From NCBI GenBank assembly GCA_045638265.1, contig JAZUBA010000044.1, positions 146,862 to 210,861 of the forward strand: DNA of 64,000 nucleotides. Reading direction: 5' to 3'. Shown in pieces: positions 9,032 to 59,893 of this stretch. Both the position numbers and the translations under genes were made by a program. Numbering within the stretch: the stretch's first letter is position 1; every line of letters begins with the position of its first letter. The notes under the pieces were generated by a model that ran no database searches, was not told the DNA's origin, and worked only from the letters and a program-made list of their open reading frames with translations. This DNA is from Alphaproteobacteria bacterium (lineage in GTDB: Bacteria; Pseudomonadota; Alphaproteobacteria; CAAHEQ01; UBA3637).

Positions 9032-10849
9032 TTGCAATTTGTGCAAGTAATGGTATTAAGTTTGGTTGCCACGACACAGGCTTGGTCTGCTCCGGCTACA
9101 TTAAATGATGCTGTTACGTTAAATGAAGTGCGTACAGATGCGAAAACACCGGTGGAAACAGACCCACAAACTCAAATAGATAATTATCAATATCAAATTG
9201 ATGGTAAATACGTTCTTGATCCATCAAAAGTCATTGCCAAAGGTGATTTTGATTATCTTGATAAAAACGGAGACAGAACCAATTTAGGTGCTAATGATAA
9301 TCCGGATTATGTTTTAAGTGCTTCAAATGGCAAAGATTATGATGCTGCTAAAGGTGATAAAATTCTTGAAAGCGATTATACGGTTTCAACTTCAAAAGGC
9401 AGTCTAGGATTAGATAAAATCAAAACAGATACAGATGGTAATTTAAGTAAAGACGGTTATACATATAATGGTATTTCTTTAGAAACATCAGTTTTGGACC
9501 GAATCGATAGTGGTGCTTATACATACACAGACAAAAATGGCAAAGAATATGCTTTGCAAGTTGTACAAGATGCGAGTGGTAACTATATCGGTGTTATTCC
9601 GAAAGATTTAGTCAGTGATTCGGTTGCTGTTACAAATGCAAATCAAGCATACGGCAAATTTACGCAAGACCAAACAGCATATAATGGTATTTATGAAACT
9701 TGGTCAAATGATAATGACTCATATCAAAATACTTTGAATAACTATAATGAAGATGTTGATACATTAGGTAAATATGAAGATAACTACAAAACATTTGCTG
9801 ATGCTTCAACGCAATATGGTGAATTTGCTGCTGATGAAACAAAATATGTAAATTATACTGGTTCATTGGGTGGTATCATTGATAACCGTGCTGAAACGAT
9901 TGCTAAACAAACAGTTAGTGAAGCCATTAATGGTGAATTAGAAGGTTTAGACGGTATTGTTGGTAAAGTTGATGCTAATGAAGAAAATATTGCAAGCAAC
10001 AAAAAAGCTATTGAAGAAAATGCAACTGATATTGAAACGAATACAGCCAATATTGCTAAAAATACAACTGATATTGCAACAAATACAGCCAATATTGCTA
10101 AAAATACAGCAGCAATTGATGTGTTAAATGGCGATGTTAATACGGAAGGATCTGTCAAGCATACAGTTTACAACGAAGCTCAAAATGGTAAGTACGATGG
10201 CCAAGTCTTGAATGGTTCTGATGCAACAACATTGGGTGGTGCTTTGTCGGATACAATTGGTCAAGTTAATACATTAAACGGTGATGTTAATACGGCGGGT
10301 TCTGTTCAACATACAGTTTACAACAATGCTGAAAATGCTGTATATTCAGGTACACAAGTTGCAGGTACGTCAACACGTGCAACAGCAACATTAGGTAGTG
10401 CTTTGTCTGCAACAACCGAACAGGTAAATATCAATACAGGTAATATTGCAACAAATACAGCCAATATTGAAACCAACAGACAGAATATTGCAAGCAACTT
10501 GGCAAAAATTGAAACAAACCGTCAATCTATTGCTGATTTGAGAAGTGATTTCAATGCTCAAAATGTACGCAATGAAGCTCGTTTCAGTAAAGTTGAAAAG
10601 AAAATTGAAGAAGTCAGTGATGAAATGAATAAAGGCTTGGCCTCAACGGCCGCATTAACTTCTTTGGTGCCATTATCCAGCAGACATAGAACACAGTTGT
10701 CTTTGGGTATGGGTGGTTATCGTGATAAACAAGCGGTTGCTGCCGGTGGTTACCATTATGTAGCAGGCAATGTATTGTTAAATGCAGGCGTTGCTTGGGG
10801 AGGAGATAATAGTGTATCATACAAAGCAGGTGTAACTTACGGATTCTAA
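9032..10849 (+). CDS. Trimeric autotransporter adhesin (YadA-like). The main ORF is given as in the track (TTG start); the probable true initiation is the ATG at 8998, in another frame (see findings).
   Basis: C-terminal YadA-type membrane anchor (LASTAALTSLVPL...GVTYGF). Stalk repeats NTANIAKNTTDIATNTANIAKNTAAI, seen as a 27-nt exact DNA repeat at 10040-10066 and 10082-10108. Duplicated LNGDVNT(E/A)GSV(K/Q)HTVYN modules. Confidence 0.9.
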   Translation: MQFVQVMVLSLVATTQAWSAPATLNDAVTLNEVRTDAKTPVETDPQTQIDNYQYQIDGKYVLDPSKVIAKGDFDYLDKNGDRTNLGANDNPDYVLSASNGKDYDAAKGDKILESDYTVSTSKGSLGLDKIKTDTDGNLSKDGYTYNGISLETSVLDRIDSGAYTYTDKNGKEYALQVVQDASGNYIGVIPKDLVSDSVAVTNANQAYGKFTQDQTAYNGIYETWSNDNDSYQNTLNNYNEDVDTLGKYEDNYKTFADASTQYGEFAADETKYVNYTGSLGGIIDNRAETIAKQTVSEAINGELEGLDGIVGKVDANEENIASNKKAIEENATDIETNTANIAKNTTDIATNTANIAKNTAAIDVLNGDVNTEGSVKHTVYNEAQNGKYDGQVLNGSDATTLGGALSDTIGQVNTLNGDVNTAGSVQHTVYNNAENAVYSGTQVAGTSTRATATLGSALSATTEQVNINTGNIATNTANIETNRQNIASNLAKIETNRQSIADLRSDFNAQNVRNEARFSKVEKKIEEVSDEMNKGLASTAALTSLVPLSSRHRTQLSLGMGGYRDKQAVAAGGYHYVAGNVLLNAGVAWGGDNSVSYKAGVTYGF

Positions 10850-14787: not shown

Positions 14788-17640
14788 ATGAAGTTTTCTG
14801 ATTTTTTGGAATATACAAAATTTTTATTTGATTCAGTTGTTTATCCTGATAATAAATCGGTAGATTTGTTCGTTGATAAAGACATTCTTGGTATAAGCAA
14901 TCAATCGGCGCAATCATGTGAGAATATGATTTTTGTTGCTGTTAAAGGTGCAAAATTTGATGGGTTGGATTTTGTTGAACAGGCTGTTCAAAATGGTGCT
15001 ATTGCTGTTGTATCTGACAGATTGATACAAACCAGTGTGCCTGTTATTTTAACATCAGATGTTCGTCATGCGATGGCAGTTATGGCAAGTGTACTTTATC
15101 CGACTCCCAATATGTGTCAATTAGCCGTTACAGGTACAAACGGTAAAACATCAACGGCGTATTTTGTTAGACAAATATTAAATCATTTAAATTGTTTGAC
15201 GGCAAGTATCGGTACAATCGGTATAGAATCACCCGTATATAATCAATCCTCCTCTTGTACGACTCCGGATAGTATATCAATGCATCGTGCTCTATGTGAA
15301 TTAGCTAATAAAGGTGTTCAGGCAACTGTTATGGAGGCATCCAGTCATGGATTACATCAAAAACGATTGGATGGTATTACTTTTAAAGCAACGGCTTTTA
15401 CTAATTTAACAAGAGATCATTTAGATTATCATCAGACAATGGCAGATTATTTAGATGCTAAAATGCTTTTGTTTACGCAAAGAACGGATAAAAACGGATT
15501 AGTTGTTGTGAATGCAGATACCCCAGAATGTGAAACAATTGTTTCAGCTGTTCAAAAACAAGGGATTCAGGTATATACATACGGTGTTAACGGTCAAGAA
15601 TTGAAATTATTATCACAAAAACCAACTGTTAACGGGCAGGATATTGTTGTCAATGTGTTAGGTCAAGAATATGCTTTATCTGTTAATATTTACGGTGAAT
15701 TTCAGGTAATGAATATTTTGTGTGCTGTTGGGTTGTGTTTGGGTGCGGGTTTGTCTGTTGAAGATATTATGCGTGTTTTGCCAAAATTACAAGCTCCTTC
15801 GGGTCGAATGGAATTAATAGATACGGTTAAAGGTTCTCAAATTTTTGTTGATTATGCACATACACCGGATGCTTTGGAACGTGTTTTGTTGTCCTTGCGA
15901 CCTCATACGGAAAATAGGCTTGTTTGTTTATTTGGTTGTGGTGGAAACAGAGATACGGGTAAACGTTCACAAATGGGGAAAATCGCTGAAAAATTGGCTG
16001 ATGTTGTGTATATAACTGATGATAATCCTCGTTTTGAAGATGCGGCACTGATTCGTCAGGAAATTAAAAAGGCTTGTCCAAAAGGGATTGAAATTGGTGG
16101 ACGAATTAAAGCCATTGGCACAGCGGTTCATTCATTGGAAGAGGGTGATGTTTTGGTTTTATGCGGAAAAGGACATGAAACAGGACAAACTGTTGGAACA
16201 ACAGTATACCATTTTAATGATAAAGCCGAAGTATTGGCGCAAACGGCATTGTTGAAAAAAGAAGTTTTATGGGATTCTTCTGAATTGTCTATGGTTTTTA
16301 ATACGCCTGTTTCTTCGGAAATTAAAGTAACAGGTATCTCTATTGATACGCGTACGTTAGAACCAGGTGATATGTATATCGCATTAAAGGGTGAACATTT
16401 AGACGGTCATCAGTTTGTTGAAATGGCGTTGGACAAGGGAGCTGTTGTTTGTTTGGTAGATCATTTGATTGATACTGTTCCTACCACAAAACAAATTGTT
16501 GTTTCAGATACAATGTTGGGATTGGAATCGTTGGCACGGTTTGCCCGTATGAGAAGTGAAGCGGTTTTTATCGGTATTACGGGGAGTTCCGGCAAGACGA
16601 CAACGAAAGAAATGTTAAAAGCCGTTTTAAGTGAACAAGGACGAACATTTGCCACATCAGGCAATTTTAACAATCAAATCGGTGTGCCGCTTATGTTGGC
16701 TCGGATGCCTTTAAACACGGAATATGCCGTGTTAGAGATGGGTATGAATCATACAGGTGAAATGACGTATTTATCTGATTTGGTTCGTCCGAATTATACG
16801 TTAATAACAGTTATTGGATCGGCTCATCGGGCTTATTTTAAGGATGATGGAGCTATTGCCGAGGCAAAAGCAGAAATATATACATATGCCGATAAATCTG
16901 GTGGAACGGTTATTAATAAAGATTGTCCTTTTTTTGACTTTTTGTCTGATGTTGCTCATCAATATGGTATTCGTAAAATTATTTCATATGGTAGTACAAA
17001 AAATGCCGATTTTGAAATGATTTCTTGTTCTGTTGGTGCCGGTCAAACTAAAATTAAAATGAAATGGCATGGGACGGAATATGCATATCAAATTGCTTTT
17101 ACGGGAAAACATTTTGCTTTGAATTCTTTGGCAGTTTTGGCAATGACGGATATTGTCGGTGCTAGTGTTGAGTTGGGTATGAAAACTTTATCACAAATAA
17201 AACCGACGTCTGGACGGGGTGCAACGGAAAAGATCAGATTAAAGAATGGTGTAGAAGTAACATTAATTGATGATGCATATAATGCGAATCCAATGTCCAT
17301 GAAAGCATCTATACAAACGTTAGGTGCATATCGTTTAGGGAGACGGATAGCCGTATTGGGTGATATGTTGGAATTGGGTGAAGAATCAAAAAAGTTACAT
17401 GTTTCTTTGGCTCAGACATTAATTGAGAATGATATTGATAGTGTTTATACGGTCGGTACTGAAATGCAGGCATTGTATGATGTATTGCCAAAAGAAATGC
17501 AGGGTTATGCAACAAAAACCGTTGATGAAATGATAAAAATACTTGACAATTCATTACAAGTAGACGATACGGTTTTAATAAAAGCTTCAAACGGGATTGG
17601 TTTGAACAAAATTATTCACGCCTTGAAAGGAGAAAAATAA
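14788..17640 (+). CDS. murE-murF: Fused MurE-MurF (UDP-MurNAc-tripeptide synthetase plus UDP-MurNAc-pentapeptide synthetase) in one 950-aa ORF
   Basis: N-terminal half has the MurE P-loop TGTNGKTST and DNPR-like DDNPRFED. C-terminal half has the MurF P-loop TGSSGKTTTKEML and DDAYNANP. No stop codon between the halves; junction near nt 16260. Confidence 0.9.
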   Translation: MKFSDFLEYTKFLFDSVVYPDNKSVDLFVDKDILGISNQSAQSCENMIFVAVKGAKFDGLDFVEQAVQNGAIAVVSDRLIQTSVPVILTSDVRHAMAVMASVLYPTPNMCQLAVTGTNGKTSTAYFVRQILNHLNCLTASIGTIGIESPVYNQSSSCTTPDSISMHRALCELANKGVQATVMEASSHGLHQKRLDGITFKATAFTNLTRDHLDYHQTMADYLDAKMLLFTQRTDKNGLVVVNADTPECETIVSAVQKQGIQVYTYGVNGQELKLLSQKPTVNGQDIVVNVLGQEYALSVNIYGEFQVMNILCAVGLCLGAGLSVEDIMRVLPKLQAPSGRMELIDTVKGSQIFVDYAHTPDALERVLLSLRPHTENRLVCLFGCGGNRDTGKRSQMGKIAEKLADVVYITDDNPRFEDAALIRQEIKKACPKGIEIGGRIKAIGTAVHSLEEGDVLVLCGKGHETGQTVGTTVYHFNDKAEVLAQTALLKKEVLWDSSELSMVFNTPVSSEIKVTGISIDTRTLEPGDMYIALKGEHLDGHQFVEMALDKGAVVCLVDHLIDTVPTTKQIVVSDTMLGLESLARFARMRSEAVFIGITGSSGKTTTKEMLKAVLSEQGRTFATSGNFNNQIGVPLMLARMPLNTEYAVLEMGMNHTGEMTYLSDLVRPNYTLITVIGSAHRAYFKDDGAIAEAKAEIYTYADKSGGTVINKDCPFFDFLSDVAHQYGIRKIISYGSTKNADFEMISCSVGAGQTKIKMKWHGTEYAYQIAFTGKHFALNSLAVLAMTDIVGASVELGMKTLSQIKPTSGRGATEKIRLKNGVEVTLIDDAYNANPMSMKASIQTLGAYRLGRRIAVLGDMLELGEESKKLHVSLAQTLIENDIDSVYTVGTEMQALYDVLPKEMQGYATKTVDEMIKILDNSLQVDDTVLIKASNGIGLNKIIHALKGEK

Positions 17641-40507: not shown

Positions 40508-41161
40508 ATGAAACCAAATCAGAAGAATCGCTATAATGGGCGACACAATAACCGAAACACTCGTTCAATGATTATGCGGAATACGGTTATGGAAAGTACG
40601 GGACCAATGGGTAAAATTCATGGAACGGCATTGCAATTATCAGAAAAATATCAAGCTTATGCAAAAGATTATTTAATTCAAAATGATGTTGTTATGGCTC
40701 AAATGTGCATGCAATATGCTGACCATTATATGCGTCTTCAAAATATTGCTATCGCTAACGAGCAATCGTTACGACCTCAAAATAATAATGAACAACGCCA
40801 AAAACAAGTTGCTGAAAAAACAGAACTACAACCGACTATTTCAGAAAACATTGAAGAAACACAAGAATTAAATACGAAAGAAGAAAGTGTTTCAGAAACA
40901 AAAACAGATGAAGTTGTTGAAACGGAAACACCGTCGGAACTAAAAGAAAAGAAAGTTAAATCGGCAAAAAAACAAGCTAATCGTAAAGTTGTCAAAAAGA
41001 AAGAAAAAGAATCAGATGATGAAATGGAAATCAAGGCTGAAGATGTGTTAGGGCGTGATTTATCCGTTCCGATTGCCGTTATGCAGGAAAACAATGAGTC
41101 GCCTGTTAAGACCAAAAGGGCTACATCACGTCAACAGACAAAGCAAGCAGTATCTCAATAG
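40508..41161 (+). CDS. DUF4167-family protein (alphaproteobacterial)
   Basis: N-terminal GPMGKIHGTALQLSEKYQAYAKDY...MQYADHYMRL core typical of DUF4167, then a charged low-complexity tail. Confidence 0.8.
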   Translation: MKPNQKNRYNGRHNNRNTRSMIMRNTVMESTGPMGKIHGTALQLSEKYQAYAKDYLIQNDVVMAQMCMQYADHYMRLQNIAIANEQSLRPQNNNEQRQKQVAEKTELQPTISENIEETQELNTKEESVSETKTDEVVETETPSELKEKKVKSAKKQANRKVVKKKEKESDDEMEIKAEDVLGRDLSVPIAVMQENNESPVKTKRATSRQQTKQAVSQ

Positions 41162-41179
41162 AGAAATGGGTAAAAATAA

Positions 41180-41211
41180 AAAAGCATACAAGGATGTATG
41201 CTTTTTTTTTA
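41180..41211 (+). terminator. Rho-independent terminator
   Basis: Stem AAGCATACA/TGTATGCTT followed by T9. Confidence 0.8.
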
Positions 41212-41216
41212 TACTT

Positions 41217-41245
41217 AAAACCACCAGTAAAACTGGTGGTTTTTG
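41217..41245. terminator. Hairpin terminator usable by the convergent minus-strand 937-aa gene
   Basis: Stem AAAACCACCAGT/ACTGGTGGTTTT flanked by A and T runs. Confidence 0.6.
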
Positions 41246-41264
41246 GTATATAGATCATGTAATA

Positions 41265-44078
41265 TTAAGAAGATAAAGCACACTTGTAACCAGTGATTTC
41301 GGAATCAGCGTTTTCAATTACTTCTATTGTTCGACCGCAAACAGTCTGACACATATTTTTAGAAACTTCATCTGTTCCGATTTCTTTTGTACTTGCTTCT
41401 TCGCAGAAATAACATTTACCGTCTTTATCTTGCCACATGCCCGACGGACAATCTTCAACACACAATCCTACTAAATTGCCTTGTTCTTCAAAACCGGTTG
41501 TCATTACACGCCTGTTTTCACAACTACTGCAAAGATTTGCAATATCTGGATTAACAGGAACATTTTTCTGTGAACAAGCAACACAAGTAGCACTTGTATT
41601 GAGGAATTGTTGACCTTCTGCACATAAACCTTTTAAACAATTTCCACCTTCATAACGTCTATTTTTACAACTGGCACATTGTTCTTGAGTTGTTGTATAA
41701 GATACATCTGAATCACATCGGCGACAATAACCATCATTAGAACGATAATATACACCATTATAATCCCCTTTAATATATGCCTCAGCAGCATCTTTTATTG
41801 TGGCAGTTAGGTTTGCATCAGAATAATAATCATTACCTATATTATTACAAATACCACTAACACCTGGATTAACCAATCTACAATACGGACTCCAATAAGT
41901 ATTATCTTTTACCACCATACGATTTCCACAATCATTACACAAATTGAAAGCACCTGGAGCTGTTGTTATAAATTGTATTGCATCATCATCACCACTATTT
42001 GCTCGAGTACATGAAACACAAACACCTGTTCTTGTTTTATAATATCTGGTTGTTTCAGTATGAGGACAATCAGCCATCACACAATATCGTTGAGTTCCCC
42101 ATTCAGTTCGTAACCAATCAGATGTTCGATTAGGACATTTTTCATCACAATCACTTTTTGCATTCAAATCAATAGTGATTGAAGACGTGGTTGATGTCGT
42201 ACCACAAGTCACACATGTTCCACCTGCATTATTAATGTAATTTTCAGCGCAAACCGGACGACACACAAGACCACTCTGTTTACTATTAAAGACTTCCATG
42301 GTTAAAATTGTCCCGTTTTCATCATACTCACCATTTTCATTTTTTTTACAACGTGATTCACAGCCAGAAATATCTTCTGATACAATTGTAACACTTGATG
42401 TTGTTTTGTCACAACTTCTGCAAACATTGTCCTTTCCTAAAAACTGACCTTGTAGACAATCTTCCTTTTTTTGTTCTAAAATACAATAATCACCATCAAC
42501 TTTACGACCACATTTTGTGCATAAATTTGATAAATATTCTTTTTGATTAGAAATGTTAATATTATTTGATGTTGTGACTGTTTTGCAATCAAAACAATTT
42601 CCATTTGCATTTTGCCACTTGCGTGTACATTTTTCATCCTTTGGATTAGCTTTGCAAATTTCTATTTGTTCATCTTCGTTTACCGGTTGTTCACAAACAG
42701 GCAAACAGTATCTTTCAATGACATGACGTGGTGCAGAATCTGGACAACTATTACATTTTTCCTCAGCATACGCTCTAAAATCACTATGTGTAGAAGAATA
42801 GTTTGTCCACCATATTTGAACTCGCTGATTCCTATTATCTGAACATTTAGTGCAAGTATAAGGTGTTCCTTCCTTAATAAATTCATCATCCGCACAATTT
42901 AGTTTTTGCTGACACCAATATCCTCCTAAGTATGAACCATACCATGCGTGATTTTCTGAACACGCTAAACATTGTGCTTTTGATATAGTTTCATTTTGAA
43001 TGCTATGACGAGTCATATCACTACATGGAATACATCCTTCACTGGATGATTGATAAGAATACCCCTCAGTACACATAAAGGAACAATACCCCCGAGAGCT
43101 ATCTTCTTGTAACTCACCACGCCAACGTTTGGTTCCCGCTGCTTCACATTCTCCGCACATCGTATAACCGTCTACCTCATCACTCGTATCAGGGAACCCT
43201 TGTCCGTCTTTTAACACAAAGAAATTACTTCCGTCATCACAACTGATACATGCTCCGTTTTGACTGCGGAATGTTCCTTCCGGACATGTCTTTTTTAATT
43301 CCGTACAAGTATTATTTGATTCATCACAAATCCAACCACGTCCCTTGTGTTGACAATCTTCATTTATTTTACATTCTACACATATACCACTTGCTCGCAT
43401 ACAGAATGGTTTATCTGTTCCGACACAGGCATCACGACATGTCATTGTTTTAGGATCGCATACGGCGCCCCCACATTCCTGCGGACAATCTTCTTCATCT
43501 ACACATGGCTCTAATGCCGGTCCATTCGGATTATCGGGATCTACAATCCCACCAACTGCACCACCACCTTCGCTCAAAAATGATGTAAACACCATTTGAT
43601 TCATCGTGCCACTTTCGCCACAGATAGCAATATCTCCTGTATAGCGTGTGAGATTTTCAGAATCAACATCACCGACTTGTACAAACTTTAATCCTTTAAT
43701 TGCATCATCTAAATTTTCTTGTAGCACTTTCTGACAAACAGCACTAGGGACATCATTAACCCATGTTTTGAACGCAATCGGCGGATGAGATGTTACCCCA
43801 ATTTCAAATCCTGTTTGCGTCATTTCACCATATTCAGGAAAGGCATCTTCATCAGGTGAATCGGGTAATTCTTTTTCACCGTCTTGATATAAATGCCAAA
43901 TATCCGTGGCACGCATATTGACTTCATTGACAATATCGTTTGCCCGATGTTTATCCATGGCATACTTATATCCTTGAATACCGCCGAATGATAATACACC
44001 AATAATGGCTAAAACGCCCAATATTTCAACCATTGAGCGACCACGTTCGTTTTGTGTAACAAGTGCTTTAAATGACAT
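41265..44078 (-). CDS. Giant type IV pilin-like protein: prepilin N-terminus and small pilin-like head, followed by a ~750-aa CxxC-rich cysteine-repeat region
   Basis: GGAGG Shine-Dalgarno. Class III signal ...NERG|RSMVEILGVLAIIGVLS with Glu at +5. Gly/Pro linker GGGAVGGIVDPDNPNGPALEP. Then, by manual count, about 74 Cys including about 18 CxxC pairs (CISC, CGEC, CIPC, CTKC, CNSC, CFDC, CRSC, CVTC, CNDC, CASC, CSSC ...). Confidence 0.85.
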   Translation of the reverse strand: MSFKALVTQNERGRSMVEILGVLAIIGVLSFGGIQGYKYAMDKHRANDIVNEVNMRATDIWHLYQDGEKELPDSPDEDAFPEYGEMTQTGFEIGVTSHPPIAFKTWVNDVPSAVCQKVLQENLDDAIKGLKFVQVGDVDSENLTRYTGDIAICGESGTMNQMVFTSFLSEGGGAVGGIVDPDNPNGPALEPCVDEEDCPQECGGAVCDPKTMTCRDACVGTDKPFCMRASGICVECKINEDCQHKGRGWICDESNNTCTELKKTCPEGTFRSQNGACISCDDGSNFFVLKDGQGFPDTSDEVDGYTMCGECEAAGTKRWRGELQEDSSRGYCSFMCTEGYSYQSSSEGCIPCSDMTRHSIQNETISKAQCLACSENHAWYGSYLGGYWCQQKLNCADDEFIKEGTPYTCTKCSDNRNQRVQIWWTNYSSTHSDFRAYAEEKCNSCPDSAPRHVIERYCLPVCEQPVNEDEQIEICKANPKDEKCTRKWQNANGNCFDCKTVTTSNNINISNQKEYLSNLCTKCGRKVDGDYCILEQKKEDCLQGQFLGKDNVCRSCDKTTSSVTIVSEDISGCESRCKKNENGEYDENGTILTMEVFNSKQSGLVCRPVCAENYINNAGGTCVTCGTTSTTSSITIDLNAKSDCDEKCPNRTSDWLRTEWGTQRYCVMADCPHTETTRYYKTRTGVCVSCTRANSGDDDAIQFITTAPGAFNLCNDCGNRMVVKDNTYWSPYCRLVNPGVSGICNNIGNDYYSDANLTATIKDAAEAYIKGDYNGVYYRSNDGYCRRCDSDVSYTTTQEQCASCKNRRYEGGNCLKGLCAEGQQFLNTSATCVACSQKNVPVNPDIANLCSSCENRRVMTTGFEEQGNLVGLCVEDCPSGMWQDKDGKCYFCEEASTKEIGTDEVSKNMCQTVCGRTIEVIENADSEITGYKCALSS

Positions 44079-44126
44079 AATACCTCCAAATTATCTAATA
44101 AATTCAGTTTTTTTACATTGTAATTA

Positions 44127-44146
44127 AAGGTACGTTTAATTGCAAC
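44127..44146. repeat. Left arm of the 20-bp perfect inverted repeat (AAGGTACGTTTAATTGCAAC)
   Basis: Exact reverse complement of 44257-44276. Extends to 44124 with one 1-nt indel. Confidence 0.95.
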
Positions 44147-44183
44147 ACTTTTTTTTATATTTTTGCATTTTTTTTAATTTTTT

Positions 44184-44213
44184 TTGATTTTGGTACGTGG
44201 GCGGATTTATAAT
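44184..44213 (+). promoter_or_regulatory. Sigma70-like promoter inside the IR-bounded segment, pointing away from the pilin-like gene
   Basis: TTGATT (44184-44189)-N18-TATAAT (44208-44213) on the plus strand. I found no comparable -35/-10 pair on the minus strand of the segment. Confidence 0.5.
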
Positions 44214-44256
44214 CTTTGTCACGATTCACCCTTTTTTGATTCTTATATGCGGAATC

Positions 44257-44276
44257 GTTGCAATTAAACGTACCTT
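44257..44276. repeat. Right arm of the 20-bp perfect inverted repeat (GTTGCAATTAAACGTACCTT)
   Basis: Exact reverse complement of 44127-44146; the spacer between the arms is 110 bp. Confidence 0.95.
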
Positions 44277-44304
44277 AATATGCAACGAGAACAATGTATT
44301 TTAT

Positions 44305-44345
44305 ATAAAAAAACGGATTATCTTCATTAAAGATAATCCGTTTTA
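44305..44345 (-). terminator. Terminator of the acetyl-CoA synthetase gene
   Basis: 14-bp stem AAACGGATTATCTT/AAGATAATCCGTTT with flanking A and T runs. Confidence 0.85.
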
Positions 44346-44363: not shown

Positions 44364-46445
44364 TTATTTTAATAACATCTTGAAGTCAACAACAACTGCG
44401 CGGTCTTTTGTAACCAATGCAGGGTTGGCATCAATAGATGTAATTTCAGGAATTTCTAAAACAACTTGTTGTACTTTTTTCAATGTTTCAGCCAAAGGTC
44501 CGACTGCTTTCGGATCTTCTCCACGAACACCGTTTAAAATTGTACCGACTTTTGTTTCTTTAATCATAGCATCAAAGTCTTCTGCCGGTAAAATGCGTAA
44601 AGTTGTATCTTTCATAACTTCCGTATAAATACCACCTGTTCCGAAAACCATAATGCGTCCGAAGTTTTTATCGGAATTGACACCGATAATTGTTTCTGTT
44701 GCTTTAACAATCATTTCTTGAATTAAAACACTGGCTCCTTTTAATTGGAATTTTTCAATAGAACCGTTTAATCCATCCCATGCTTCGTTAAATGTTGCTT
44801 CATCATGAACATTTAAGTAAATACCTTTCATTTCTGTTTTGTGTAAAGCATCAGGAGCTGATAACTTTAAGACAACAGGTGATGGGAAGATTTTTTGACA
44901 GAAAGCATAAGCTTCGGCTTTATCTGTATAGTTACCGCTCTTTGGATAATCAATGCCATAATGATCCATAATCATATTGACAACATTTTGCGGTAAAGAT
45001 GCCAAACCTTCGGCTTTTGCAGAAGCAACAGCTTCTTTGATAGCTGTCGGAACTTCATTTGTTTCAACAGTAATGGTTTTTGCACCACGATATGCCATTT
45101 GAGCTTTTAACAAACCAAGTGAACGAATAATATCAATTGGATATTCATAGTTCAAAATGTGTGCTTTATTTAAAATCTCACGACCTTCTTTAACTTTAAC
45201 ACCACCGACAAATACAGCAAAAATATTTACATTTTTGTATTGTGGTGCAATGCGAACAATTGCTTCTGCCGTACCTGTTGCATCTGTAACCATTTGAGGT
45301 GTCAACAAGACGAGAATATTTTTGTATTCACCGCTTTCGCATAAGATTTTCAATGCTGTTTCATAACGATCGGCACGAGCATCACCAATAACGTCTATCG
45401 GGTTACCTAATGAAGCTTCAGCCGGTAAAGCTGCACGCAATGTTTCAATTGTTTTTTCACTTGGACGAGCTAAATCTAAACCGTTATCTTCGCACAAGTC
45501 ACTGGATAACACACCAACACCGCCGGCATTTGTCAAAATGGCAACTGAACCGTCAAATTCATGATGATGTGTATATTGTAAGATTTCTAACAAGCTGAAT
45601 AATTCACGTGTTGTGTAAGCTTGAATAACACCGGAACCTTTTAAAGCAATTTCCAAAACACGATAGTTTGGAGCTAATGAACCTGTATGTGACAAACTGG
45701 CAGCTTGTGCTTTTTGAGATTTACCCGGTTCCATAATAACAACCGGTTTTGTTTTTGAAACTTCTTTTAAGACACGCAAAAATTCTTTACCATTTTTCAA
45801 TGATTCCAAATAGAAAACAAAAGCTGTTGTGTTTTTGTCGTCTTTCAATGCAGCTAATAAACGGTCTTCAGCCAATAAAGCTTTGTTACCGATAGAAATA
45901 AAGTGAGAGAATCCAATGCCGTTTTCACGAGCCCAGTCCATTAATGCTGAACAATAAGCACCTGATTGTGAAATAAAGGCAACATTACCTTGTGAAGGGA
46001 AACCATCGGCAAAACTGGCATTGACTTTGTCAAATGTTGAAATATGACCTAAACAGTTCGGTCCTAACAAGTTAATACCATTTTCAGCACATTTTTGAGC
46101 AATTGTATCTTCTAATTCATGATTACCGACTTCACCGAAACCAGCTGTAATAATACTGATGTTTTTGGCTTTATTAGCAATGGCATCATCAATAACCGGC
46201 ATTGTGAATTTAGCCGGAACAACGACAACAACCAAATCAATGGCTTCCGGCAAATCACGAACGGAAGCATAACAATCTTTGCCATACAATTGTGTACCGG
46301 CACATTTTGGGTTAATGGCATATAAATTACCTTCATAACCGGCATCAATAAGATTATTAAAGACAACGGCACCTAATTTTGACGGATCATTTGAAACACC
46401 GACAACCGCAACACTTTGCGGATTAAAAAACGAATCTAATGACAT
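44364..46445 (-). CDS. ADP-forming acetyl-CoA synthetase / acetate-CoA ligase family (fused CoA-binding, CoA-ligase and ATP-grasp domains)
   Basis: N-terminal FFNPQSVAVVGVS...LYAINP CoA-binding fold, a GPNCLG motif, SQSGA, and a C-terminal ATP-grasp-like half; 693 aa. Confidence 0.88.
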   Translation of the reverse strand: MSLDSFFNPQSVAVVGVSNDPSKLGAVVFNNLIDAGYEGNLYAINPKCAGTQLYGKDCYASVRDLPEAIDLVVVVVPAKFTMPVIDDAIANKAKNISIITAGFGEVGNHELEDTIAQKCAENGINLLGPNCLGHISTFDKVNASFADGFPSQGNVAFISQSGAYCSALMDWARENGIGFSHFISIGNKALLAEDRLLAALKDDKNTTAFVFYLESLKNGKEFLRVLKEVSKTKPVVIMEPGKSQKAQAASLSHTGSLAPNYRVLEIALKGSGVIQAYTTRELFSLLEILQYTHHHEFDGSVAILTNAGGVGVLSSDLCEDNGLDLARPSEKTIETLRAALPAEASLGNPIDVIGDARADRYETALKILCESGEYKNILVLLTPQMVTDATGTAEAIVRIAPQYKNVNIFAVFVGGVKVKEGREILNKAHILNYEYPIDIIRSLGLLKAQMAYRGAKTITVETNEVPTAIKEAVASAKAEGLASLPQNVVNMIMDHYGIDYPKSGNYTDKAEAYAFCQKIFPSPVVLKLSAPDALHKTEMKGIYLNVHDEATFNEAWDGLNGSIEKFQLKGASVLIQEMIVKATETIIGVNSDKNFGRIMVFGTGGIYTEVMKDTTLRILPAEDFDAMIKETKVGTILNGVRGEDPKAVGPLAETLKKVQQVVLEIPEITSIDANPALVTKDRAVVVDFKMLLK

Positions 46446-58003: not shown

Positions 58004-59893
58004 TCAAGCTTTGGTATGTTGTTTTGATACCGGAATGGGGCATCCTGACATCCAAGCACAAACAATACCATTTAAAACTTTTCGCCTGACATTTTGAGAT
58101 GGTAGTTGAAGTGCATTATTAATAGACATAATATATGGTTCTAAATCTTTCACTTCGTAATACGAATTATCATTTAAAGATTCTCCGGACAAACACATCT
58201 CTTGAAATGTAATTGCAAACAGATATAAATCCTGCAAAATTTGAGGATTTAATTTCTCTTTGTTTTTTGATTGCTTATATTGAAATGCCGACAAAAAAAC
58301 ATCCTTATCGGGATCGTTATCTACCGATACAGTTAAAAAGGGATACATTTTTTCAAAATCTATCGGTTCATTTTGAACCGTCTTTTGATTGGGATAATAC
58401 TCATATAATCCAGTTTGATATTTTCTTTCAATATTGTCTGAAATTTTTTCAACAATGCAAAAAACTTCGCCATACATATCTTGTGCTTTTTGAGCCAAAT
58501 TTTTATCCATTTTTGTATGACACAATGTATTTCTTAATTCCACGGCATCTGCTAATTTTTTATTTTCATCTGCCGTAATCATACCTAACTTTAAAAAAAT
58601 GTTTGGTTGATTCGGGTTTAAATTTGCCTGTTTAACACAAATATCACGTAAAGCCTTTCGTGCATCCATTAAAAGAATCAACATTCTGGCACTGGCTGTA
58701 AAATCCTCTTCTTTAATTGATTGAATTTTTTGCTGAATAGCTATTTCATCTTTATTTAACAATTTAGCTAAATACTTTGACATATTCAAAACAAAATTCG
58801 TCATATAATTAATATCATTCGCACTATTTGTTTTATCACCCATTGGTCTGAAATTATATTCCATCGGATGAGCTAATTGATTGCGAATAGTCAAATATTG
58901 TTGCATCTGTTGAATTTCTGTTGTTGAAAACAACTGTTTTAATCCGTTTATTTTATTGATATCCTCAAAAACATCAGTACTATTGGCAAGTGCTGAATCT
59001 TGTTTTAATTTCTGAACAAGCATACAAAATGTTTCTATGGCAAGAATGTTAAACTGCTCCAACAAATTTTCACCTTGTCGTTTAGCATATTCCATTCTCA
59101 TTTTTTTGCTTTCTGCATCCATCATTTTTTGAGAACAATTCTTTCCGAGTTTCTGATAGATTTGTTGTGCAAAAGCAATCATATAAAACAACTTATCTGC
59201 CACAAGCTTATTCTTTGACAAATAATCAAAAAAACTTTTATCCGTTAAAAAAGTTGCACGAACCATTAAATCATCATTTATCCAAATTTGATGATATACC
59301 GGTTTTGACGGTTTTGAACGTGAAGCCAAAACACTCACTTTTTCCTGAGATGCATACAGACCTAATTGATTGGTATCCCATATTGGAAAAAACGATTCAA
59401 ATACCGTATAATTCAAACCATAACATCGTTGTCCGACCGGCACTTTTGCTTTACGATTATATAAATTAAGGCGTCCGGCAGAATCATAGGAACGAGCATT
59501 TTCTTTTTGCGAAGCCAATACAATTTCAAAATCTCCCATCAATATCGCTTTTCTAACTTCTAACTTTGCCAGACTTTTATTATCAGCAATCTGATAAATA
59601 TTATAAGATGTTTGTTTCAACAACCGCTCAACGTCCATTTCATAATATTTTTTCAGATGAGGATTCTTTTCTTGATTAATTCTTTTTTTCAATTCACCTA
59701 AATAACAACGCATTTTTTGAGCATATTTTTGGGCGCGTTCTGTCGCAATATTTAAAAACGTATCAAAATCCGTTAAATTTTGAACTAATTGATATCGTTT
59801 GACTAAATATTGATATTGTGCAAGATTATAACAAATCAAATCTAATGTTTCATCAACATTTATTGATGGCGTTGTATTGTTTTGTTGCTTCAT
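58004..59893 (-). CDS. Hypothetical 629-aa protein with two HEPN-type RNxxxH motifs (tandem HEPN-like, putative RNase)
   Basis: TIRNQLAHPMEY (R337-H342, nt 58868-58885) and VELRNTLCHTKMD (R454-H459, nt 58517-58534). Each is preceded by a helical segment, as in DUF86/HepT HEPN domains. The ~330-aa N-terminal region is unrecognised. Confidence 0.55.
   Translation of the reverse strand: MKQQNNTTPSINVDETLDLICYNLAQYQYLVKRYQLVQNLTDFDTFLNIATERAQKYAQKMRCYLGELKKRINQEKNPHLKKYYEMDVERLLKQTSYNIYQIADNKSLAKLEVRKAILMGDFEIVLASQKENARSYDSAGRLNLYNRKAKVPVGQRCYGLNYTVFESFFPIWDTNQLGLYASQEKVSVLASRSKPSKPVYHQIWINDDLMVRATFLTDKSFFDYLSKNKLVADKLFYMIAFAQQIYQKLGKNCSQKMMDAESKKMRMEYAKRQGENLLEQFNILAIETFCMLVQKLKQDSALANSTDVFEDINKINGLKQLFSTTEIQQMQQYLTIRNQLAHPMEYNFRPMGDKTNSANDINYMTNFVLNMSKYLAKLLNKDEIAIQQKIQSIKEEDFTASARMLILLMDARKALRDICVKQANLNPNQPNIFLKLGMITADENKKLADAVELRNTLCHTKMDKNLAQKAQDMYGEVFCIVEKISDNIERKYQTGLYEYYPNQKTVQNEPIDFEKMYPFLTVSVDNDPDKDVFLSAFQYKQSKNKEKLNPQILQDLYLFAITFQEMCLSGESLNDNSYYEVKDLEPYIMSINNALQLPSQNVRRKVLNGIVCAWMSGCPIPVSKQHTKA

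Follow-up and report, generated by a model that had tools for sequence, protein, structure and literature searches.

A probable site-specific inversion switch upstream of a giant cysteine-rich pilin-like gene in uncultured Alphaproteobacteria

Introduction

Gut bacteria escape phages and the immune system of the host in ways that are set by phase-variable surface structures. To our knowledge, almost all well-studied invertons come from Bacteroidota, Enterobacteria, Clostridia and mycoplasmas. In Escherichia coli, fimS is a segment of 314 bp with 9-bp repeats and a complete promoter, and is flipped by FimB and FimE, tyrosine recombinases encoded next to it, together with IHF and Lrp. The element described here is likewise a short segment, putatively promoter-bearing, that is flanked by inverted repeats directly upstream of a pilin-like gene, as fimS lies upstream of a phase-variable fimbrial gene; unlike fimS it has no adjacent recombinase, its sites are of another type and its promoter is probably split.

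The capsular-polysaccharide invertons of Bacteroides fragilis, also a gut bacterium, are short invertible promoters upstream of dispersed surface-structure loci, with related inverted repeats at all loci and one serine invertase, Mpi, acting in trans. Here too, several unlinked promoters carry one repeat type, and the Mpi repeat consensus, which we take to be ARACGTWCGT, resembles the centre of the repeat in our window, AAACGTAC(C/G)T. The two systems differ in host and cargo (Bacteroidota and polysaccharide operons by comparison with Alphaproteobacteria and single giant pilin-like proteins), and the Bacteroides segments hold the whole promoter, whereas here the -10 box apparently lies outside.

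Classical Din segments are 1-4 kb long, with the invertase gene inside or next to them. The segments described here are only 131-140 bp, have neither an invertase gene nor an enhancer in or adjoining them, and leave no obvious room for an enhancer of the Fis type, nor would Fis itself be expected in Alphaproteobacteria. The sites of the Din family (Hin/hix, Gin/gix, Cin/cix and Pin/pix) are 26 bp long and laid out as 12-2-12; crossover takes place at the central dinucleotide, and the core is AAAC-N-NN-N-GTTT (PMC3241671). In Mycoplasma penetrans, scattered lipoprotein genes of the mpl (P35) family mostly have their own small invertible promoter and are switched independently, and the candidate recombinases are tyrosine (Xer-like) enzymes encoded near the genes (PMC2268961). 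One switch per paralogue is also the arrangement found here, although the site layout and exchange point suggest a serine enzyme, none of which is encoded nearby, and the hosts and proteins are unrelated to those of M. penetrans.

The pilin-like gene and its inverted repeats

The window (the whole stretch of DNA analysed, 64 kb) contains a gene at 41265..44078 on the minus strand for a Cys-rich protein of 937 amino acids with a prepilin-like N-terminus, preceded by a Shine-Dalgarno sequence, GGAGG, at 44083-44087. No Pfam family was found for the full-length 937-aa protein. The N-terminus matched Pfam N_methyl weakly (E = 0.091; 12.8 bits against a cut-off of 21.2) and an NCBIfam prepilin-peptidase-dependent protein family at E = 0.003, far below its cut-off; G13, E18 (at +5) and 66 Cys residues are invariant in 55 homologues. 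A sequence search of the PDB gave nothing useful, and exact-protein look-ups of the pilin-like protein, its DUF4167 neighbour and P0003 returned no records.

A gap of 285 bp separates the start of this gene (44078, minus strand) from the stop of the upstream open reading frame at 44364, the length given in the sequence-only reading. The upstream gene (44364-46445, minus strand) encodes an ADP-forming acyl-CoA ligase by Pfam. The hairpin noted in the gap was recovered by the scanner as terminator-like at 44310..44344, its 16 pairs leading into a run of T; it belongs to the acyl-CoA ligase gene on the minus strand and also insulates that gene from outward transcription leaving the switch.

The sequence-only reading had further proposed that an inverted repeat in this gap bounds an invertible promoter. 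The perfect 20-bp repeat, AAGGTACGTTTAATTGCAAC, is indeed present at 44127-44146 with its exact reverse complement at 44257-44276, enclosing 110 bp; it can be extended imperfectly to 38 nt at 79% complementarity. These are the only copies of the 20-mer in the 64 kb, even when up to three mismatches are allowed (0.02 copies are expected per window from shuffles, and none of 100 shuffles reached two), and the pair is the window's sole perfect inverted repeat of at least 14 bp with a spacer of 30-1000 bp.

Overlooked in that reading was the fact that each arm forms half of a ~26-bp quasi-palindrome of 12-2-12 layout. The gene-proximal crossover site (44119..44144) reads TGTAATTAAAGG TA CGTTTAATTGCA and has 10 of 12 palindromic pairs; it comprises a fixed outer half (44119-44130), the central TA (44131-44132) and an invertible inner half (44133-44144), and it ends 39 nt before the ATG, with its inner part covered by the perfect arm at 44127-44146. 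The gene-distal site (44259..44284), TGCAATTAAACG TA CCTTAATATGCA, has 8 of 12 pairs and is made up of an inner half (44259-44270), the central TA (44271-44272) and a fixed outer half (44273-44284). The two centres are 140 bp apart, and the invertible segment between them (44133..44270) is 138 bp long and contains no open reading frame. All 16 sites examined have 7-10 palindromic pairs out of 12 around a 2-bp centre.

The segment is reversed in related loci

Orientation was compared across paralogues, strains or haplotypes in assembled contigs. The search for flipped alleles among relatives that had been suggested for this locus yielded two reversed segments (in loci L003 and L007) and one contig with both junction types (L001). 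L003 is a paralogue in another genomic neighbourhood, its protein 70% identical to that of the window; its proximal site has the same sequence and its distal site is nearly identical. The segments of the window and L003 agree at 87 of 112 positions only after reverse-complementing, with the flanks fixed (alignment score 54 flipped and -37 in the same orientation, by comparison with -34 +/- 4.4 for shuffles), and the distal outer half-site keeps its position while the L003 segment is reversed.

A second set of loci, group 2, consists of eight loci from metagenome Ga0310690 and L011 from another metagenome. Here L007 is reversed relative to the other seven Ga0310690 loci, with 118 of 138 positions identical when flipped and an alignment score of 98 flipped versus 5 unflipped (shuffles -33 +/- 6). 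L011 has the orientation of the group-2 majority, so that eight of the nine group-2 loci of known orientation agree.

L001, from sample ERZ27297661, is the window's own locus in the same species: its CoA-ligase protein is 100% identical and its flanks are ~99% identical. Beyond the second site, the sequence continues as the reverse complement of the terminator-side flank, and the contig carries both junction types at this locus. The tail differs at three positions in the outer half-site, and this variant, GTTGCAGATAAAC, recurs in L086/L087 as their natural distal half-site; both junction types therefore exist in one sample. Given the three differences, the tail represents a second haplotype or a gene-conversion product, and not just the same molecule flipped. 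Comparison of the window with L002 by the segment alone gave a score of 44 (shuffles 34 +/- 5), which is not significant because the sequence is low-complexity A/T, and the orientation of L002 was called from the attached half-site.

The reversed segments in relatives and the two junction types in L001 lend good support to the core of the original proposal, that an invertible promoter region governs the pilin-like gene, and the element upstream of this gene is very probably a site-specific inversion switch.

A candidate promoter split across the gene-proximal site

The promoter scanner found a sequence that the sequence-only reading had missed, TTGCAA-N17-TACAAT (44117..44145, minus strand), which spans the gene-proximal repeat and points toward the gene. 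Its -35 box (44145-44140) lies in the invertible inner half-site; its -10 box (44122-44117), 38 nt from the ATG, belongs to the outer half that stays fixed. Directly upstream of the -35-like TTGCAA is an A-tract module (44146..44191, minus strand), AAAATCAAAAAAAATTAAAAAAAATGCAAAAATATAAAAAAAAGTG, a candidate UP element and/or intrinsic-bend element. Upstream of the -35 hexamer, a 23-nt stretch that stops 2 nt short of it is 86% A+T with 16 A as found; it would be 69% A+T with 5 A if the segment were flipped.

The hybrid geometry recurs in L003, L007, L029 and L022 and in 16 of 17 loci overall; L088 has an inverted repeat pair but no hybrid promoter. At 16 of 17 loci, and in four site families, the proximal outer half-site holds a -10-like box, 31-40 nt from the ATG, and the A-rich end of the segment always offers an equal or better -35. 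Among six loci of the window group the A-tract/-35 end is the best-conserved part of the segment, and a TGC-N19-hexamer spacing is common to the window, L004 and group 2. L007 has no gene-directed site other than the hybrid TTTACA-N17-(TG)AATAGT; in L029, this same hybrid is found at the distal site instead, facing away from the gene. In L022, flipping would create TTGACA-N17-(TG)TATAGT where ATTCCA stands as found.

These positions, kept across site families, bear on the orientation of the switch. The window had been called apparently OFF; with the -35/A-tract module adjoining the gene, this call is probably the wrong way round. We infer the promoter assignment and the direction of switching from this conservation, and give about an even chance to the promoter being split across the proximal site and the window being ON (or high). 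In the window and L003, and nearly so in L086, TTGCAA (or TTGCAC) stands in both inner half-sites; a -35/-10 pair is therefore present in both states and the upstream A-tracts alone differ, and the ON/OFF contrast in this subgroup is a predicted UP-element effect. The A-tracts could instead bend the very short inversion loop of 140 bp, and the half-sites may be A/T-rich recombinase-binding sequences that merely resemble -35 and -10 boxes. Promoter-like matches are not enriched in this region (3 by comparison with 2.2 +/- 1.5 in shuffles), and a literature search on split invertible promoters found no precedent, which is a weak negative.

The sequence-only reading had chosen a different promoter, TTGATT-N18-TATAAT at 44184..44213 on the plus strand, which lies wholly within the segment and, as the window stands, is aimed at the terminator hairpin and not at the gene. 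This would make the element an inverton of the fimS kind with a complete internal promoter: the window would be OFF, and flipping would place the promoter before the gene with a leader of ~100 nt. The match itself is real, and no other sigma-70-like site in the segment scores as high (10/12); in L003 it faces the gene as TTGATT-N18-CATAAT, and most assembled loci would then be ON. At the aligned position, the window, L003, L004 and L099-L101 retain an ATAAT-like hexamer, and L086 has TATCAT. Its choice as the promoter is nevertheless doubtful, since it is poorly conserved: the -10 is CGTAAT in L001, with the critical A at position 2 lost despite this being the same species; it is TAAAAC or GCAATC in L002; the -35 is displaced in the L004 type; and group 2 has no counterpart of TTGATT-N18-TATAAT. 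It lies in the less conserved half of the segment, eight of the nine group-2 loci of known orientation would have to be ON simultaneously, and the fixed -10-like box near the ATG in four site families would be left unexplained. We regard a complete internal promoter as unlikely. A weak fixed promoter, TTACAA-N17-TATTAG, that had been suggested between the repeat and the gene gave no match in the scanner.

Exchange at the central dinucleotide in group 2, and alternatives to inversion

The exchange point was examined in group 2 only, by comparison between paralogues. Set against L010, L028, L029 and L057, L007 shows the nucleotide on the 5' side of the central TT remaining with the outer half-site and the one on its 3' side travelling with the inner half-site. 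The base beside the centre of the outer half-sites (G at the distal site, C at the proximal site) is fixed in the group, and L007 swaps its inner halves only. Exchange at the central dinucleotide in group 2 therefore excludes re-insertion of a transposon there and speaks for a serine invertase that acts in trans; by homology, exchange in the window group would occur at the same position.

The element is short and A/T-rich, has inverted repeats at its ends and occurs at several unlinked loci, and assembly contigs often end at or inside it (L001, L100, L011 and L020), as contigs do at repeats; all of this would also suit a MITE with terminal inverted repeats that had reached the upstream regions of different genes by separate insertions, facing either way. 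Re-insertion would, however, carry the termini along, which is at odds with the fixed outer half-sites of group 2 and the swap of inner halves alone in L007. Further, all junctions are 12-2-12 palindromes in which the outer half mirrors the inner, a trait of recombinase sites and not of transposon ends; the distance to the ATG is constant and the gene family always the same; no target-site duplications were seen; and the 20-mer had a single match, L002, in 185,579 representative genomes, among which the source genome is evidently not included. A MITE origin is highly improbable. Just as improbable is the idea that a dimeric transcription factor uses the palindromes as operators, with a DNA loop of 140 bp between them and no inversion. 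Each site is quasi-palindromic, the proximal one overlaps the -35/-10 candidate and a 140-bp spacing would suit looping, but such operators explain neither why the segments of L003 and L007 are reversed while their flanks are not, nor the double junction in L001, and the arms are perfectly identical as inverted copies (20/20) and not as direct copies (79%). A hairpin in RNA or DNA (attenuator, terminator or sRNA) with no role in recombination is a very unlikely explanation of the repeat: a perfect 20-bp stem is thermodynamically possible, but the loop would be 110 nt, there is no Rfam match (the top hit, at E = 0.17, scores far under the gathering threshold), the arms share only 9-15 bp of identity in L002, L004 and L088, and flipped alleles exist. 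A hairpin would be expected to show compensatory arm changes at a constant orientation, and relatives show the opposite.

At the level of its sites, the switch can be compared with the Din family. The group-2 proximal site, TTTACAAAAACC AA GGTTTGTGTAAT, is strikingly like hixL, TTCTTGAAAACC AA GGTTTTTGATAA (PMC3241671 Table 3); both are 12-2-12 imperfect palindromes, and the exchange in group 2 is confined to the central 2 bp. Half-sites match the Din consensus at three to five of seven specified positions, with the AAAC/GTTT core kept and the outer TTC/GAA not, and the window group has a palindromic TA as its central dinucleotide, unlike Din sites.

No recombinase found beside the switches searched

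The statement that the window encodes no recombinase was borne out by a Pfam analysis of all open reading frames of at least 100 aa and one of 87 aa. No recombinase was found beside any switch in 417 kb (the window and 85 loci), searched with regular-expression motifs and a Hin probe, and no resolvase-type gene was found in the window or the other loci searched. The sole recombinase seen was of the XerC/D type, in L023, beside a gene without a repeat pair. We infer the class of the enzyme from the site layout and exchange point, and lean slightly towards a serine invertase that cuts at the central dinucleotide and is encoded elsewhere in the genome.

Discussion

Taken as a whole, the locus is best explained, with good probability, as an inverton worked by an invertase in trans, with a split promoter as the likeliest arrangement. 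Two ~26-bp sites of 12-2-12 layout (centre TA), inverted and 140 bp apart, would be recombined by an invertase encoded elsewhere, and recombination at both sites would flip the 138-bp segment. The fixed outer half-site would supply the -10 box, TACAAT, and the end of the segment a module of -35 and UP-like A-tract. In the window this module adjoins the gene, which would most likely be ON (or high); inversion would leave the A-tracts 140 bp away, and relatives whose inner half-sites differ would lose the -35 as well.

A more detailed picture can be drawn, although we offer it tentatively and consider it slightly more likely to fail in some part than to hold in full. Crossover would fall within the 17-bp spacer of the promoter, and a serine invertase in trans would shuttle a -35/UP cassette between two outward-facing -10 boxes; the OFF state of group 2 would be the same promoter reversed, making the switch a bidirectional toggle. 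Each 900-aa disulfide-rich pilin-like gene would have one 131-140-bp switch, its loop shorter than one DNA persistence length and formed without an enhancer or a local invertase, and the outcome would be combinatorial antigenic variation in uncultured Alphaproteobacteria of the gut and rumen.

The locus and its relatives extend a familiar strategy of phase variation to a new bacterial group and gene family: uncultured low-GC Alphaproteobacteria of the gut and rumen very probably also use one switch per gene, and the switched family is a large and so far uncharacterised one of giant Cys-rich pilin-like proteins. The split promoter, if true, would be a compact and portable design with a fixed -10 and a movable -35/UP cassette, of interest to synthetic biologists and, as a 140-bp loop formed without an enhancer, to those who study recombinase mechanism. 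Such switches also break metagenome assemblies, and the orientation seen in a metagenome-assembled genome gives only the majority state of the population.

The internal copy of GGTACG that the sequence-only reading regarded as a partial third repeat is present at 44192; it is not conserved in L003 or L086 and is probably there by chance. Most relatives that share only the N-terminus, found in a metagenome scan, have no repeat pair upstream, which places the switch in certain subfamilies and not with all proteins that share this N-terminus. When the locus was approached from the pilin side via TrcR, none of 23 contigs reached the switch, since they lacked the gene or ended inside it. The same design stands upstream of many paralogues, so that one invertase, acting in trans on many loci, probably switches the site of each member independently, as phase or antigenic variation. 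The window-type site occurs in three neighbourhoods, beside the CoA ligase (the window and L001), ankyrin genes (L003) and DHFR/ThyA (L086), and the group-2 site at no fewer than nine loci on at least eight contigs.

An inverted repeat pair precedes the pilin-like gene

The window is core chromosome of an alphaproteobacterium of approximately 35% GC and carries TrcR, GapR, DUF4167, FtsK, FtsZ and the dcw cluster. AAGGTACGTTTAATTGCAAC (44127–44146) and its exact reverse complement (44257–44276) are separated by 110 bp and lie in a 285-bp gap. On one side of this gap is a 937-amino-acid pilin-like ORF (41265–44078), on the other the stop of a gene for an ADP-forming acyl-CoA ligase (44364–46445), both on the minus strand; the terminator hairpin of the ligase gene occupies 44310–44344. 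Repeats, spacing and gap are as the sequence-only reading had described them; what it overlooked are the larger quasi-palindromes, one at each end, to which the arms contribute one half each. No other perfect inverted repeat in the window has arms of 14 bp or more and a spacer of 30–1000 bp, and a search of the 64 kb for the 20-mer with up to three mismatches returned just these two copies (0.02 expected from dinucleotide shuffles).

Elsewhere in the window, a 950-amino-acid ORF (14788–17640, plus strand) contains the full Mur-ligase set of middle and C-terminal domains twice and looks like a fused murE-murF gene within the dcw cluster. Further candidate host-interaction proteins (6846–7586, 59908–61581, 9032–10849 and 58004–59893) comprise ankyrin-repeat proteins, a YadA-anchor autotransporter and a 629-amino-acid ORF without a Pfam family.

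Homologous loci carry the segment in both orientations

Three independent lines of evidence, all from sequence comparison, support inversion of the 138-bp segment at 44133–44270. The first comes from L003, a 131-kb contig whose pilin-like gene is 70% identical to that of the window and lies in a different neighbourhood of ankyrin genes. The gene-proximal site and its flank are identical in the two loci and the distal site is near-identical; the 110-bp core of L003, however, aligns to that of the window only if reverse-complemented (87 of 112 positions identical; score 54, as against −37 in the same orientation and −34 ± 4.4 for shuffles). Two ankyrin-repeat genes (L003 1005–3754) are directly upstream of this switch.

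The second line is a distinct site family, group 2, found upstream of eight paralogues in metagenome Ga0310690 (outer repeat ACTATTACACAAAC; 134–135 bp centre-to-centre). Seven of these share one orientation and L007 has the opposite one (118/138 identical and score 98 when flipped; score 5 without the flip; shuffles −33 ± 6). A further such locus, L011, the ninth, comes from another metagenome and has the majority orientation.

The third is L001 (sample ERZ27297661), the window's own locus, with a 100% identical CoA ligase protein and flanks approximately 99% identical at the DNA level. This contig runs through the terminator, distal site, segment and second site, and then, in place of the pilin flank, into the terminator flank reverse-complemented. 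The outer half-site of this tail, GTTGCAGATAAAC-GTAC-G, recurs without change as the natural distal half-site of two other loci (L086 and L087), so the tail appears to be a genuine other-orientation junction, from a second haplotype at the window locus. Contigs also begin (L100, L011, L020, L053) or end (L001) in or at switches, which fits mixed orientations, although paralogue repeats could also cause such assembly breaks. The segment half away from the A-tracts differs between the window (44214–44256) and L001 (6192–6240) at about 12 of 50 positions despite the near-identical flanks, as if paralogous switches had undergone mosaic exchange (gene conversion).

Crossover sites and the point of exchange

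Every site falls into a 12-2-12 register in which 7–10 of the 12 pairs are palindromic. The window's proximal site is TGTAATTAAAGG TA CGTTTAATTGCA (44119–44144) and its distal site TGCAATTAAACG TA CCTTAATATGCA (44259–44284), with centres 140 bp apart. The central dinucleotide is TA in the window group, GA/TC in the L004, L099 and L101 type, AA/TT in group 2 and AT in L022. Partner sites in group 2 differ in the bases that adjoin the central TT on either side. Of these two bases, L007 retains the 5′ one next to its fixed outer half, and the 3′ one has travelled with the inner half, which confines exchange to the central dinucleotide. Exchange limited in this way is the signature of serine recombinases.

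Such confined exchange also excludes that a whole mobile element was re-inserted. In group 2, outer half-sites that stay in place argue decisively against a MITE having inserted in one or the other orientation; a MITE is also implausible in that the junctions are palindromic, the distance to the ATG is constant, target duplications are absent and the 20-mer has a single match in 185,579 genomes. An RNA hairpin formed by the inverted repeat is likewise implausible, given a loop of 110 nt, no Rfam family match and arm identity down to 9–15 bp in relatives. A looped operator pair leaves the flipped alleles unexplained and was rejected.

Another locus, L088, has an extra palindrome, GACGTAAAAACGATTCGTTTTTTATGC (~9660–9690), approximately 130 bp upstream of its own repeat pair; it resembles the L022-type site AAAAACGATCGTTTTT and may be a third, shufflon-like site or a remnant. 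In group-2 segments the variable middle of the 138 bp forms a hairpin with apparently compensatory changes (arms TCTCCATCCCTTG/CAAGGGATGGAGA in L028 and TCTCTATCCCTTA/TAAGGGATAGAGA in L057, among others), which might bind a protein or terminate transcription depending on orientation.

A proposed trans-acting recombinase

The sequence-only reading had noted no recombinase gene in the window, and none of any family is encoded there. Hin probe and motif scans of 417 kb (the window and 85 loci) found no recombinase adjoining any switch, and there is no invertase gene or enhancer in or adjoining the 138-bp segment. Hin/Gin sites are nearest in layout, and the 12-2-12 arrangement and AAAC-N-NN-N-GTTT core resemble those of Din-family sites such as hixL, TTCTTGAAAACC AA GGTTTTTGATAA (PMC3241671 Table 3), but window-type and related sites match the Din-family consensus at just 3–5 of 7 positions. 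Given this weak match and the lack of a local invertase or enhancer, we infer a trans-acting serine invertase that probably lies outside the classical Din group. A XerC/D-type tyrosine recombinase (Phage_integrase and SAM_1) is encoded at L023 1603–2586 (minus strand), ~1.2 kb downstream of the start of a family member without an upstream repeat pair, and is probably a housekeeping enzyme unrelated to the switch.

Promoter architecture and switch state

Two promoter models make opposite predictions for the window. The sequence-only reading placed an entire promoter, TTGATT-N18-TATAAT (44184–44213, plus strand), inside the segment and called the window apparently OFF. That sequence is real, but several observations favour a split promoter. 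In that arrangement the fixed proximal outer half-site would provide the −10, TACAAT (44122–44117), 38 nt before the ATG, and one end of the segment the −35, TTGCAA (44145–44140), with a conserved A-tract block (44146–44191). The window would then be ON, and we give this model as a whole roughly even chances.

A promoter scanner detected the hybrid −35/−10 in the window and L003. In flipped L007 the sole gene-directed promoter-like site is the hybrid TTTACA-N17-(TG)AATAGT; in L029, which is in the majority state, the same hybrid forms at the distal site, directed away from the gene. The inner half-sites of L022 differ precisely at the −35, reading ATTCCA as found, and a flip would yield TTGACA-N17-(TG)TATAGT. 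L002 and loci of the L004 type have TTGCAA or TTGCAT at the A-rich end only, the other end being GC-rich or unrelated. A −10-like hexamer lies in the proximal outer half-site 31–40 nt before the ATG in 16 of 17 loci (L099 is an outlier in this distance, an artefact of an early start-codon call), and in the 17-locus comparison the −35 at the A-rich end is always at least as good as its counterpart, with an upstream region that is richer in A/T. The A-tract module is next to the gene only in the window, the L001 main path and L007, with at least 16 distinct loci in the other state, and these counts fit a multigene family with few members ON.

When six window-group segments were aligned, the last ~50 columns (A-tracts, TGC, A-tract and the TTGCAA half-site) were conserved, even in divergent L002 and L004. 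The half holding the internal −10 was not, and this hexamer reads CGTAAT in same-species L001; an ATAAT-like internal hexamer is nonetheless partly conserved, and we regard a wholly internal promoter with the window OFF as possible but rather doubtful. The remaining probability falls to use of both promoters or neither.

Several findings also count against the split promoter. In the window, L003 and L086 either end carries the −35 hexamer, so that the states there differ in A-tracts only; the A-tracts might bend the 140-bp loop rather than serve as an UP element; promoter-like matches are no commoner than in shuffles; and L088 is without the hybrid.

Relation to known inversion systems

The window repeat may resemble the Mpi consensus of Bacteroides. 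Functionally, the switch is an instance of the known inverton strategy. Its nearest counterpart in regulon logic is the Mpi system, in which one invertase serves many dispersed promoters (PMC4747536), and in gene-family layout the Mycoplasma penetrans mpl family, in which each paralogue has a small invertible promoter (PMC2268961). The host group and the regulated protein family are new, as would be, if confirmed, a split promoter with the crossover inside its spacer, for which a limited literature search found no precedent.

The regulated protein family

No full-length Pfam family was found for the 937-amino-acid protein, and matches of its N-terminus to N_methyl and prepilin-peptidase-dependent protein families were weak and below threshold. 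This N-terminus (…ERG|RSMVEILGVLAIIGVLS…) has G at −1 and E at +5, which together with 66 cysteines are invariant in 55 homologues. Nearly all of the ~110 homologues come from gut and rumen alphaproteobacterial MAGs or metagenomes, apparently often with several per contig.

Close relatives differ in the presence or absence of the pilin-like gene (window 40508–44078; L089–L093, L097). In L089–L091, which have an identical TrcR protein, DUF4167 is followed by a pair of small minus-strand genes, after which come TIM, SecG and enolase, with neither the pilin-like gene nor a CoA ligase at that place, and the contigs of L092, L093 and L097 break inside the pilin-like gene; this pattern suggests a variable or rearranged island.
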